Positions 21,001 to 28,874 of a stretch of 60,977 nt of DNA are shown here, piece after piece. The position numbers are program-made. Every line of letters starts with the position of its first letter. The stretch's first letter is position 1. This DNA comes from a bacterium. Lineage in GTDB: Bacteria > Zhuqueibacterota > Zhuqueibacteria > Oceanimicrobiales > Oceanimicrobiaceae. Location: assembly GCA_046757165.1 (NCBI GenBank), contig JBHHXT010000008.1:1-60977 (forward strand), read 5' to 3'.

Positions 21001-24000
21001 CATGGTATTGAATATCCCGACTCTGCGTGAACGCACTGAGGACGTCATCCCGCTAGCCCTGCTGTTTATCGGAAGAAACAACAAGGAGTTCGGAAAAGAA
21101 ATCAAAGGCATTGCGCGTGATGCGGCAGAAAAAATGGTGAAGTACCGCTGGCCGGGCAATGTCCGGGAGCTGAAGAACGTCATCGAAAGAGCGGTGATCC
21201 TTTGCAATGAGCACGAGCTGCAATCCGATCACCTACCGTTGGAACTGCAGCACGGTATTTCCAAACTGGGCACCTCGAATGAGTTCGCTTCCCTCACAGG
21301 AGACGCTGATTCTCTTGAAGAAATGGAAAGACGCCACATCTTGAATGTGTTAAAGAAATATAACGGCAACAAATCCAAAACCGCAAGGATGCTCAATATC
21401 TCGAGATCCACGTTGCGGGAAAAGATGAAAAACTATGGCATTGCGTAATCACAAACTGTACGAAAAGTGACCATCTGTATAGAAACTACTCCATAAATTC
21501 TACCTACCTCGATCCTCAATCCCCTATCTGCCCTGTCATTTGTTGAGGAACGCCCTTGCGTTTAAGGTTTTCGGTTCAGGTGACGAAATTCACTTTTGTG
21601 AGCGGAAGCCAAAGGCTTCTCTGCTGATTCCTGTCCCCTATTTGTATTTGGTATAAGTTTTGCTCAAGGCAGGCGTGCGACTAGCTCGACGTTAAGGAGA
21701 CCGTGTATGGAAAAGCCGAAGAAACTTCTGATAGCCGATGACGAGGAGGACATATCCTGGGCAGTTTCGAAGAGCCTGAAAAAGTCAAACCTCAATATTG
21801 ATATTACGTGTGTCAACAACGGGGACGCTGCTCTAGAGCTGCTACGTCGCCAACCTTTCGATTTGGTCGTCTCCGACATTCGAATGCCCGGGTGTGATGG
21901 CCTAAGATTGATTCGAGAGATTCGGAAACACCACCCGGCAACCAAGATCATTATCATGACAGCCTATGGCTCTCAGGAGGTCATGGACCGTGCCGATGCC
22001 CTGGGCAGCTTTTTTTACCTTGAAAAGCCATTCGACATCGGGTATATGAAGCAGCTCATCATGGAGGCTTTGGACCTCAGGCAGCAAGGCTTCAAGGGCT
22101 CAATCGACCGTGCCGGCATTCGCGAGCTGGTACAGTTGAACTGCTCAAACAAGAGAAATTCTTCATTGTTCATCTCCAGACAAGAGGAAAATGGTGCGAT
22201 ATACTTCAAGAATGGGGACATTGTCCATGCCGAGTGTGGCCAGCTAAATGGAGAAAGAGCTTTTTTCAGTATCTTGAATTGGAACCGAGGGACCTTCAAG
22301 ATCGACTACAATCCGTCGTCAACCAAGAGAACCATTTCTCGCAGCTGGAAAACACTGCTCCACCAATGCGCTTAGGTGAAAGAAGCGAAGAAGGATTTAG
22401 CAGCTACATATGGGAGAAGTCATCGCCATTGCCAGCCAGAAGGGGGGAGTCGGAAAAACAACAACAGCGGTCAACCTGGGGGCAAGTCTTGCGACCCTGG
22501 GGTATCACGTGCTGCTCATAGACATCGACCCGCAGGGAAGCGTGGCCTCGAGTTTCGGCTTTACCCAGTATGACATCAAAGCTGGCATTCTGGATGTCTT
22601 CTTGAGCGATGAGCCAATCACAAATGCGATTCATCCCACCGGTCAACAGAATTTCGATTTGATTCCCACCAATCTTTGGTCGGACGACAATGAGAGGCGA
22701 CAACTGGTTGGGGTTGCCTCGAAGGTCCGATTGAAAGACAAACTCACCTCCATCAAGCAGAGCTACGACTTTCTGCTCATCGACTGTCCCCCTTCGCTCG
22801 GTAATTTGACCTTCAATGCGTTGATTGCGGCAGATTCCCTGATCATTCCAATTCAATGTGAATACTACGCCCTCAAGGCCCTGGGACGATTCCTCAAACT
22901 CACCCGAATTATCAAGAAAGAGAACAACCCACGACTTCGGTACCGTGGATTTCTGCTAACCATGGTCGACCCTAGAAACAGACTGACTAAAATTGTCGTC
23001 GAAAAAGTCCGATATACTCTGAAAGGCCTTGTTTTTGAGACCATGATACCGAGAAACATACGATTAGCTGAAGTGCCGTACTACGGGCAGCCCGTCATAA
23101 CCTTCGACAAAAAGTGCAAAGGGGCCGCTGGCTACATGAATCTGGCCCGTGAAATCTTAGGAGAAGGCGGCAATGTTGTTGGTCTTGCTGCCGATAAACA
23201 AGAAGTGAGTGTGGTTTAAAAGGAGTTTGACCTTGGCCAGGATACTGATTGTTGAGGATGACTGCAACACTCGCGTCGGGTTGTCTGAAATCCTAAGTGA
23301 AGAAGGGTACGATATTGTTGCGGTCGAAACGGCAGAAGCAGCACTCGAGAGAATCGAGACTGATATCGACATCCTGTTGTCAGATCTTCGACTTCCCTGC
23401 AAATCAGGACTCGAGCTCGTCAAAGAATTCAAATCTCTTCGTCCCGCTCTAATTGCAATTATCATGACAGCATACAGTACCCCGGAGTGTTACATTGAAG
23501 GAAAAGACATAGGAGTAGAAGCATGGTTAACTAAGCCTTTGAACGTTGAGAACCTACTTTCCCTGTTAAAAAAAACGCAATCATCGGTGACATGTCACAA
23601 GGAGCGACAAATTCCACAGCCTGAAACCGTTCTTGAATAACAATCGGCACCACCCCTTCTGAAAGGAGGCTTGCACCACGTGTTCGTAGCAATCGCATCA
23701 AACGTTCTCAAGAAGCTTACCTTTATTTCCATGATGGTTCTGATGTTCATTTCAACGTTGAGTTTCACAACCAATATTAGAAAGATAGAAGAGCAGAATG
23801 AGAGCCTCACTGAGATCGCTGACTATGTGAAGGCTTTCCAGAGCGAGTTGAAAGTAGACAGCGTCAGAACCGCAGCACTCAAGAAAATCACTAGAATCAT
23901 GTGCCAGTACAATCAGGACTTGAGCGCCAACGAAAAACATTCTATCGCCAATGAAATCTATAACATGAGCGTCAAGTATGACAACCTCGACGTGGATTTG

Positions 24001-27000: not shown

Positions 27001-28874
27001 TTGACCTCGTGCCTGACATGCCGTTGAACGCCGCCTTCAGATTTGCAGACGAGATTCTGGTCAACGCGGTCAAAGGCATGACTGAACTGGTCACGGAGAA
27101 GGGCCTCGTCAACCTGGATTTTGCAGACCTTCGTACCATCATGCAAGGCGGCGGGCTGGCCATGATCGGCCTGGGTGAAAGTGAGACTGAAATGAATGCC
27201 GAGGAAGCGGCAGAAAAAGCCCTGGAAAACCCGCTCCTCGATGTTGATGTCACTGGCGCCAAGAGTGCTTTGATCAACATTTCAGGCGGGCAGGAGTTAT
27301 CGCTGAAAGCAGCTAAGACTGTCATGCGGATTGTCGCCAAGAAGCTGGACCCATCTGCCAGAATCATCTGGGGTGCAAGGCTCGATGAGGCAATGGGCAG
27401 CAGTCTGCGCGTCATGCTCATCGTCACATGTCTACAAACATCACGACGGTCGGCGTCTGAAGTTGAAATGGTTCTTAACACCTCACCCGAACCGACTGTC
27501 ACGCCGCTCTCGCTGGCCGAACCCACGCCGCGGCAGAGCGAAAAAACAGCCGCTCCATCTGAGGCCAACAAGAAAAGGGCCGGTAAGATTTTTTCGGACA
27601 TCTTCATCGAAGAGTCCGACAGCGAATTGAATCTACTGGAGGAGTCGATAAGAAACTTGAGTCTCGGCAGGCCTGCTGAAAATGAAAAACACTTCAACGA
27701 AATAAAACAAGCCTGCTCAGCTCTTTACAGTTCCTCCGAACTCTTCGGATACGACAGAATTTCCGATTTTGTTGAGGTGATCGAAGATGTGACGGAATAT
27801 GCCGCAAATGGTGAATTCGAACTGTCCAAGAGCTTCCTGGATCTCTATCGTCCAATTCCTTCCACGCTCCGGTCGATGATGACAGATGACGAGGTAGCAT
27901 TCGAGCAAGCAGAGGAGATCAAGCAGAAGTTTGGCAATATCCTGGAATTGGTGACGAAACCCGACCCTGAGGAAGCAGACACCGCACAGAAAAGCGCACA
28001 AAGTTCTGCCAGCAGGCCCGCGTCCGACACACAGAATCAAGGAATAGATGAGAAGCAAAACGACGGCGATACGAAAGAGAATGTGCACGCCAGCGCGGGC
28101 AAAACGAAATCGGAATTTTCGAGTGTTCGTGAAGCTGTAAGGTATTTTGACAAACTCTTTTAGAAGCCCGCGACAGGTCTGATGCATGTTAACCGAGAGT
28201 GACAACTACTATTTCTCAGAGTTCATGCGGTCTCTGCATCGAATGAGCAGCATATTGACCAAACTCAAGCCGGAAGAGGATAACCAGGCACACCTCGCTG
28301 CCGCATGTGAAGCCGCTCATCGCATAAGGGATCTGGCCATGGTGCACGGCTATGCCGGGGTCGAAAACGTTGCCAACAAATTCTGTCAACAGTTCGGCCA
28401 ATTCACGCACGGAAAGAAGGAGCTGGACGCTCAATTGCTTGAGAAAGTGGAGTCGGGTGTGATGGCCATTAGACGTCTGGCAGAGATAGAAGATTCGGTG
28501 GAAGATCAGATGATAGTCGAGCATCTGAACTGGAGAGCCGAACCCCAAAGCACGCGAGAGATATGTCAAAGCGCCCAGTGGTTTGACAATCGCCAGCTAG
28601 AGCTGTTCCATCACGATGCGAACATTCCTGCGCTCGAGAGCAGACTCGCCATAGACTTCGAGATTCAAGAGTGTGATGCCATTCTGACCGGATCTGAAAA
28701 GCAAATGGCATGGGAATCAAAAAACATGATGTTAGACTTGTTTGACAAGTGACCGTTTGATACTCGATCTTGTTTTGGCAGGCTGACCTCTTCTGCATGA
28801 GGTTGGCTTTTTTGATCTTAGGTGCACCGTGTCTCCGGCAGAAAACCGTTGCGTCTTATCTGGTGATTTAGTAA

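Follow-up and report, generated by a model that had tools for sequence, protein, structure and literature searches.

A second, archaeal-type FtsZ fused to a histidine-less CheA-P1-like domain points to a switchable cytoskeleton in a bacterial phylum

Gene content of the locus

The window analysed here is a 60,977-nucleotide stretch of a bacterial genome (contig JBHHXT010000008.1). It contains, as a first-pass annotation had described, seven open reading frames on the forward strand that include a second FtsZ, and these follow a conserved cassette of signalling genes. The features are as follows:

14933..15904, +, PleD-like receiver-GGDEF diguanylate cyclase, first gene of the conserved cassette
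15984..17477, +, membrane HAMP-PAS histidine kinase of the cassette
17492..18169, +, cassette receiver protein, variable between genomes
18173..20071, +, hybrid kinase (receiver-PAS-PAS-HisKA-HATPase), with orthologues also in genomes without a second FtsZ
20078..21448, +, sigma-54 activator (receiver-AAA+-HTH), in 32/40 fetched loci
21649..21664, +, -24/-12 promoter-like sigma-54 site, 59 bases before the first gene
21707..22375, +, receiver 1, a receiver plus DUF4388 protein (Pfam)
22410..23219, +, ParA/Soj-type ATPase (Pfam AAA_31)
23209..23640, +, single-domain receiver (Pfam), variable
23671..24369, +, lytic transglycosylase (SLT) with an N-terminal hydrophobic segment
24384..26417, +, 677-aa scaffold protein without a Pfam family
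26439/26466..28163, +, second FtsZ, 565 aa (Pfam Tubulin, FtsZ_C and Hpt)
26466..27470, +, its GTPase core, of archaeal FtsZ1 type; a start at the ATG further upstream (26439) would lengthen it by 9 residues
27549..27965, +, its five-helix CheA-P1-like domain, His-less
28119..28163, +, its C-terminal amphipathic helix (hydrophobic moment 0.77)
28186..28752, +, small P1-like protein (Hpt, 18.7 bits)
28780..28809, +, terminator-like hairpin after the last gene, of interest for its position only (7 such sites, against an expectation of 8.2 from shuffles)

Contamination or a chimeric assembly is ruled out, as many genomes share this gene order and the flanks are bacterial, and so is viral carriage: 11 viral-contig matches were all 27-44% identical, none of the second-FtsZ type. 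The canonical ftsA-ftsZ pair previously reported on contig C15 does sit in a dcw cluster, and the second FtsZ is 42% identical to that FtsZ of the same genome.

The sigma-54 site, called with the -24/-12 consensus, recurs at the same position in 18/41 loci, while alone in the window it is not above chance. A site before the first gene, an activator and an RpoN encoded in the host genome together give the locus the makings of a sigma-54-dependent operon. The product of 20078..21448 is likely the activator of the FtsZ operon.

The second FtsZ is of archaeal FtsZ1 type

The second FtsZ belongs to the FtsZ family (TIGR00065, 404.8 bits; cut-off 295.2), with Tubulin GTPase and FtsZ_C domains detected by Pfam. 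The archaeal character proposed for its core was borne out: its match to M. jannaschii FtsZ1 reaches 390 bits, compared with 277 for the best-matching bacterial chain, and it resembles archaeal FtsZ1 (M. jannaschii, PDB 1FSZ/1W58) in the sequence and fold of the core, in its N-terminal helix and GTPase motifs, and in tree position. Core residues of T1, T4 (GGGTG[TS]G) and T7 (NxDxAD) are nearly or fully invariant among 61 sequences, the T7 N, D and D being kept in 61/61, and the GTPase motifs are intact in this genome. In one family the copy at the same locus is 520 aa long and its GTPase motifs are eroded, so the protein needs no GTP turnover in that family.

Trees, which the earlier annotation had not built, uphold this affinity. 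The second-FtsZ sequences of the phylum form one clade (100/99) grouped with Undinarchaeota FtsZ1 (100/98); the C20 tree comprised 65 rows. First-class second FtsZ is 60-72% identical to Undinarchaeota-clade rows, and five first-class rows are only 41-48% identical to canonical FtsZ. Duplication of the host FtsZ was rejected (p 7e-5). In AU tests (31 and 32 rows, LG+G4), from one set of which two long-branch rows were removed only after the full-set result was known, exclusion from FtsZ1 gave p 0.044 (0.006 without the long-branch rows) and placement with FtsZ2 p 0.044; with the long-branch class included, neither a placement basal to the archaeal sequences (p 0.12) nor one outside DPANN (p 0.21) was rejected, and without that class p was 0.006-0.04. 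The exact donor of the second FtsZ is less firm than the rejection of a host duplication.

In archaea the FtsZ1 gene adjoins translation genes (available text of PMC9871819), standing beside secE-spt5-rpl11; the ftsZ genes of the donor group precede secE and spt5, and those of the archaeal relatives L073 and L074 lie beside translation genes. The second FtsZ gene does not, and is found instead under a sigma-54 site. Its tail differs as well. The C-terminal GID motif of archaeal FtsZ1 binds SepF (PMC8178401, in the part available), whereas neither this motif nor the bacterial tail motif occurs in any of 138 tails of second-FtsZ relatives, and SepF was not found in the host genome (99.98% complete). 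Unlike archaeal FtsZ1, the protein is fused to a P1 domain and stands in a bacterium beside a canonical FtsZ; the C15 copy has the dcw position after ftsA and a Pro-containing tail peptide, and the second FtsZ has neither. The C-terminal amphipathic helix, whose pattern recurs in 44/138 tails, stands where archaeal FtsZ1 has its GID tail and is a possible membrane or partner anchor.

An alternative is that a signal induces the second FtsZ to modulate ordinary division: by co-polymerising or competing with canonical FtsZ it would shift or block the septum, and its P1 domain would only tune this. Intact polymerisation motifs, the host's canonical dcw cluster, the adjoining ParA and wall hydrolase, and the want of any anchor of its own other than the terminal helix would suit such a role. 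We nevertheless consider it unlikely, given the low identity of the five first-class rows to canonical FtsZ and the missing bacterial tail motif; for that purpose a copy of the host's own gene would presumably be better suited than an archaeal one.

The Hpt-type domains do not conserve the acceptor histidine

The first-pass annotation had described an FtsZ with an Hpt fold in its C-terminal part and two-component genes as neighbours, and in this it was right: the tail matches the Hpt family of Pfam (26.1 bits; cut-off 24.6) and has the bundle of four or five helices typical of Hpt and CheA P1 domains. Its further proposal of control by phosphorelay fails, because a conserved His to accept the phosphate is missing from all four P1-like domains. 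In P1 alignments the acceptor His was found in 0/61 sequences, 1/138 tails, 1/25 and 0/24 scaffold domains and 1/20 small proteins, whereas the host's true CheA P1 domains retain H-x-x-K-G. The FtsZ domain has Ser418 at that place, confirming the loss already noted there; the His reported for the small protein is indeed present in this genome (His45), but is not kept in its relatives. That phosphoryl groups move through these domains and switch the ring directly is thus highly improbable, for all that Pfam matches, His45 and intact kinases and receivers close by could be cited in its favour. The small protein has two-domain forms in other families. Another His or Tyr lies near the end of helix B in 11/20 sequences.

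The same five-helix fold is seen in R. sphaeroides CheA3-P1, bound to CheY6 (PDB 3KYI/3KYJ; PMC2817712), with which the scaffold aligns over 124 residues (Z 16.4, rmsd 2.6). In the available text of that paper, a lone P1 binds its receiver through helices A and B and receiver helix 1, with a similar interface with and without phosphate. Here too receivers are encoded alongside P1 domains; in contrast to CheA, these domains have no conserved His or same-chain kinase, and are fused to a tubulin or carried on acidic linkers. The conserved helix-A residues of the FtsZ tail are also generic CheA-P1 residues, and therefore show no specific partner.

Partner proteins and distribution across the phylum

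The 677-aa protein had been called an orphan but is not foldless: it consists of a helical N-terminal domain (residues 1-135), for which Pfam and other family searches found no clear family or fold, an acidic linker, and two His-less CheA-P1-like domains (322-426 and 548-671). Scanning metagenomes with the alignment of the scaffold gave no usable pattern. Receiver 1 has an invariant DDEED..W in helix 1, with phospho-Asp57 and Lys107; the receiver phospho-Asp and Lys are invariant in 29/29 sequences. The second class carries a receiver-only form of this protein. The ParA has a deviant Walker A in 20/20 sequences and arginines in 18/20 and 20/20 at the DNA-binding positions of Soj; no parB lies beside it, and a separate parA with a parB-like neighbour (read by eye) lies on contig C62. 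The transglycosylase matches PF01464 above cut-off (72.5 bits), keeps its catalytic Glu in 21/22 sequences and, catalytic motif included, adjoins the scaffold in 21/40 loci.

The second FtsZ occurs in 97/167 genomes of the phylum (KSB1 by names), the other 70/167 being without an intact copy. Distribution and tree together substantiate the claim of a stable archaeal FtsZ1-type paralogue across a bacterial phylum. The scaffold is spread about as first described, in 64/167 genomes (profile, E<1e-30; previously 59) and 19/20 family relatives as before. The proposed defining job, wall remodelling at a ParA-chosen site, is weakened, since 10/10 fetched second-class loci and 6/6 of family f15 contain no ParA, transglycosylase or scaffold. 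The minimal second-class locus is promoter, receiver and FtsZ, and in f15 FtsZ stands alone; conversely, receiver 1 remains at the cassette where FtsZ is gone (L213, L217) or relocated (L214). The module is dispensable and comes apart between genomes.

With signalling genes as the only steady partners, the filament might organise signalling and not the wall, gathering or sinking receivers and kinases, its ParA acting like the ATPases PpfA and ParC that place chemosensory clusters. Four docking-type domains and two receivers in a single operon would fit, as would weak scaffold matches to ChpA-like multi-Hpt kinases (2/14) and FimL/Hpt clusters as a lead only. CheW, however, is not tied to the second FtsZ (1/19 in f15 and 0/2 in f11, but 5/19 in f7, which has no paralogue), and the recurrent pairing of scaffold with a transglycosylase that keeps its catalytic motif also argues against this reading, which we doubt. 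A service to flagellar or motility-machine assembly under sigma-54 we regard as very improbable: the host genome has fliG and che genes, and the transglycosylase's best NCBIfam match is flagellar (72 bits, below the cut-off of 234), but fliG is missing from paralogue carriers (0/2 in f11, 0/19 in f15, 0/4 in f20, 0/5 in f22, 0/3 in f23, 0/2 in f24) and present in 7/19 genomes of f7. We rejected a flagellar or chemotaxis role because fliG and CheW do not co-occur with the second FtsZ.

Discussion

We propose, with confidence evenly balanced, that the operon, induced through sigma-54, encodes an accessory tubulin filament on which receiver proteins dock with no transfer of phosphate. An FtsZ1 gene would have passed from an archaeon, most likely near Undinarchaeota, to the ancestor of the phylum, where it would have lost its SepF-binding tail, gained a His-less CheA-P1 domain and been set behind a sigma-54 promoter adjoining a pre-existing cyclase-kinase-activator cassette. 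On a signal, the activator would switch the operon on, and FtsZ, whose motifs for GTP turnover are in place, would polymerise with GTP into an accessory filament that is separate from the vegetative Z ring. The P1 domains of FtsZ, scaffold and small protein, their His lost, would dock receivers and take no phosphate from them, so that the receivers' phosphorylation state could gate the filament's place and time. As accessories in this genome's class, ParA may position the assembly over the nucleoid, where the transglycosylase, anchored in the membrane, may open the wall for a conditional shape change or division. A bolder version of this docking model, which we advance only tentatively, is an undescribed machine: a tubulin filament acquired from DPANN archaea before the phylum diversified, whose assembly would follow the receivers through dead P1 domains on the filament, and which with its own ParA and hydrolase would build a second, developmental structure for division or the envelope alongside the normal divisome.

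The data point to a division gene that passed from archaea to bacteria long ago and to a switchable cytoskeleton not described before. Such a transfer, fixed across most families of the phylum and with a likely donor group named, ties the age of Undinarchaeota FtsZ1 to the age of the phylum; a family-wide survey states, in the text available, that no FtsZ transfer between archaea and bacteria was found (PMC9871819). Our search found no published paper on the second FtsZ-P1 protein, the supplementary trees of PMC9871819 and PMC8178401 lying outside it, and 'FtsZ' is absent from the main text of two KSB1 papers. An FtsZ with a receiver-docking domain would directly link two-component signalling to a tubulin filament, and, even with the host not in culture, purified proteins would allow each step to be tested.

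Several known systems share parts with this one. Bacterial TubZ and CetZ-like proteins also represent an archaeal-derived tubulin family in bacteria with jobs other than vegetative division (PMC9871819, in the part available); they are far diverged and patchy or plasmid-borne, whereas the second FtsZ has changed little from FtsZ1, is encoded on the chromosome and is inherited through the phylum. The Caulobacter PleD-ShkA-ShpA-TacA pathway, which drives shape-change genes (available text of PMC7010744), has like parts in a PleD-like cyclase, a hybrid kinase and a sigma-54-type activator. This is analogy only: ShpA is a working phosphotransfer protein, whereas the Hpt folds of this locus are dead ones that the operon itself encodes. 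Pseudomonas FimL joins the receiver PilG to FimV (10.1101/116954, in part), and the 677-aa protein would resemble it as a scaffold that binds a receiver. It differs in its tubulin partner, in having no pilus or Chp context, and in matching FimL Pfam domains in 0/24 scaffold sequences. FimL is itself built of His-less Hpt-like repeats. One Atlas row, a FimL/Hpt cluster, matched the scaffold at 0.88, a lead only.

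A second FtsZ of archaeal type

The seven open reading frames that the first-pass annotation placed at 21707-28752 are present as described, and those on which the argument turns are the following:

21707-22375, +, receiver-DUF4388 protein (receiver 1)
24384-26417, +, 677-aa protein (scaffold)
from the ATG at 26439 or that at 26466, +, second FtsZ (FtsZ-P1), 565 aa in its database form
28186-28752, +, small P1-like protein

FtsZ-P1 exists beside a canonical FtsZ, encoded after ftsA in the dcw cluster on contig C15, and its core is archaeal in type, both as first claimed: among 58 PDB matches it scores 390 bits to M. 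jannaschii FtsZ1 versus 277 to the best bacterial chain, and M. jannaschii FtsZ is the top structural match of its predicted model. Its named database relatives are labelled 'candidate division KSB1'. The T1, T4 and T7 residues are retained across 61 sequences (T7 Asn, Asp and Asp in 61/61), and core identity between eight genomes is 46-65%, against 55-77% for canonical FtsZ. Judged from these identities, the core is constrained and evolves somewhat faster than that of canonical FtsZ. A rival reading is that FtsZ-P1 modulates ordinary division, which we consider rather improbable. Families f6 to f10 have no paralogue match, and a complete f7 genome has the canonical gene only.

In a 65-row LG+C20 tree, 14 paralogues form one clade (100/99) that joins seven FtsZ1 rows of the Undinarchaeota clade (100/98), the whole nested in DPANN FtsZ1 (99/93), with archaea and bacteria split at 100/100. 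Trees of 279 and 123 rows concur; they had no named Methanobacteriota, Halobacteriota or Asgard rows, and the analysis set aside the loci of genome G170. On 31 rows, AU tests reject trees that group the paralogue with canonical FtsZ of the phylum (p 7e-5); those that group it with FtsZ2 are rejected by a narrow margin (p 0.044). A placement excluded from FtsZ1 is also narrowly rejected (p 0.044), while places on the branch to bacteria (p 0.12) and outside DPANN (p 0.21) are not; replacing two long-branch rows post hoc gave p 0.006 for the exclusion from FtsZ1 and p 0.041 and 0.013 for the other two placements. In 28 of 322 alignment columns the paralogue agrees with FtsZ1 as a whole and differs from bacteria, in five it sides with Undinarchaeota only, and in none with just the other archaea or just bacteria. 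Two database proteins of 511-518 aa (P0154, P0162) are FtsZ1-like, end in long tails of low complexity, lack a P1 domain and form their own branch close to DPANN FtsZ1.

A search restricted to short proteins gave 120 matches, 107 with a GID-like C-terminal motif, and the named archaeal sequences among them are DPANN. The closest are Undinarchaeota by record title (locus L074), cluster name (protein P0028) or phylum of the genome (locus L073), and their genes sit 5' of secE and spt5, the translation-gene setting described as typical of FtsZ1 (PMC9871819). By its own statement, that family-wide study found no transfer of FtsZ between the two domains. The archaeal type of the second FtsZ is firm and Undinarchaeota are the likely donor; transfer ran from archaea to bacteria, since the archaeal genes still have their setting and their tail and the bacterial sequences form a nested clade.

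Distribution and variants

The proposal of a stable paralogue in a bacterial phylum holds: matches of at least 343 bits (canonical copies reach at most 296) occur in 97 of 167 genomes (96 without G162) and 17 of 26 families. Host families group together in the 279-row FtsZ tree, the pattern expected from vertical descent. The tail domain is carried by 13 of the 150 best representatives in a 50%-identity library; ten of these are in the 279-row tree, all in the phylum's clade. Beyond the phylum we met no instance of the fusion, in a search that left out sister phyla. FtsZ-P1 is a new form of FtsZ1.

Several variants occur. In the one f4 genome examined (G044, L210:11604-13166), the FtsZ at the same locus, 3' of receiver and transglycosylase, is 520 aa long and its T1 and T7 motifs are eroded; it may be a pseudo-GTPase or a decaying copy. 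In G132 (L070:6286-8004) a single TAG between core and P1 domain splits FtsZ. Family f15 has a lone gene whose linker is much longer (about 720-800 aa; L046, L047, L048, L064, L065, L066), adjoining in three loci genes that by eye resemble polysaccharide synthesis.

P1-like domains without the acceptor histidine

The tail of FtsZ-P1 is predicted to run from a disordered linker through a five-helix domain to a final helix (hydrophobic moment 0.77; pattern in 44/138 long forms). Each of the 138 long forms has one P1-like domain, and none has the archaeal tail motif GID (PMC8178401) or the bacterial FtsZ tail pattern; SepF was not found in the source genome. The five-helix domain aligns to CheA P1 with Ser418 opposite the phospho-accepting His, which is present in 0/61 locus and 1/138 database sequences (partly overlapping sets). 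The 677-aa protein, first described as an orphan, resolves into an N-terminal domain made of helices, followed by a pair of P1-like domains. In predicted models these two match the CheA P1 fold, one at Z 16.4 with rmsd 2.6 for 124 residues and the other at Z 14.7 with rmsd 2.6 for 103; they are related to the FtsZ tail in profile comparison (97.5%) and have the His in 1/25 and 0/24 rows. The His noted in the small P1-like protein is there in the source genome but not elsewhere (1/20 overall). The first-pass idea of a phosphorelay through Hpt domains, in keeping with the kinases and receivers nearby, meets four P1-like domains without a conserved His, while the source genome's true CheA P1 domains retain the motif; we regard it as very improbable.

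In the scaffold's second P1 domain (26025-26396), Tyr takes the His place in 11/24 relatives, often as Y-S-L-K-G. Two CheA genes lie at C16:19746-27067 of the source genome, both with the canonical His and one with tandem P1 domains. Acidic linkers carry recurrent short motifs, possibly docking peptides: FtsZ tails (58/138) and downstream P1 proteins have F[DE]I[KR]E, and the scaffold has LPGEDD together with a helix (24384-28752 and related loci).

Receiver 1 retains Asp57, Lys107 and helix-1 Trp18 in 29/29. The module's ParA retains Walker A and the arginines of the DNA-binding positions of Soj, and the lytic transglycosylase retains its catalytic Glu behind a hydrophobic N-terminal segment. 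Helix 1 of the receiver is the P1-binding face in CheA3-CheY6 (PMC2817712).

Gene order and a proposed mode of action

We fetched 40 loci, picked for long contigs and family spread, some of which stop at contig ends. Cyclase, kinase, hybrid kinase, activator, receiver and FtsZ form a steady frame. Of the 40 loci, 32 have the sigma-54 activator, 24 the scaffold, 21 the transglycosylase, 19 ParA and 17 the downstream P1 protein. ParA, transglycosylase and scaffold are absent from all ten loci of a second class, and FtsZ stands alone in 6/6 f15 loci. A filament that organises signalling would suit the steady frame, and we give this reading a minor share of belief. The kinase cassette is also found in genomes without the paralogue, and is thus the older or hardier part. 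Module presence does not follow fliG or CheW across genomes, and a role in motility seems most doubtful. The hybrid kinase orthologue has no N-terminal receiver match in lineages lacking an intact paralogue (L210, L211, L212, L216; f4, f9, genus g32), and in G142 (L217:10606-12607) receiver, ParA and small P1 gene are kept 5' of guaB, with transglycosylase, scaffold and FtsZ gone.

A -24/-12 site lies 59 bases 5' of receiver 1; with 0.58 expected, this one match is at chance level in the window alone. Scanning up to 9 kb per locus for matches at 9 or more of 11 positions places a site 50-80 bases 5' of the receiver in 18/41 loci, related genomes not being independent, against 14 intragenic matches in total. 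RpoN is present in the source genome.

Together we observe a core of archaeal type whose GTPase motifs are intact and from which both known anchors have been lost, four P1 domains that lack the His, phosphorylatable receivers and a conserved sigma-54 site. The reading we prefer, with about even confidence, is a sigma-54-induced accessory filament with receiver-docking P1 domains. The cassette would induce the operon, FtsZ-P1 would assemble the filament, and the P1 domains would be putative receiver docks by likeness to FimL, a scaffold that binds PilG (10.1101/116954). In one class of loci, ParA may add position and the hydrolase wall opening. A literature search with most subscription journals outside its scope found no paper on FtsZ-P1, and the module itself may represent a system of a new type. 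As an analogy, the PleD-ShkA-ShpA-TacA pathway by which Caulobacter changes shape uses similar kinds of parts (PMC7010744). The source genome has three close paralogues (51-52%) of the module's transglycosylase at C3:55350-56057, C32:33329-34000 and C44:11818-12552, the C3 copy lying, by eye, directly 3' of another long receiver-bearing, sigma-54-activator-like protein.
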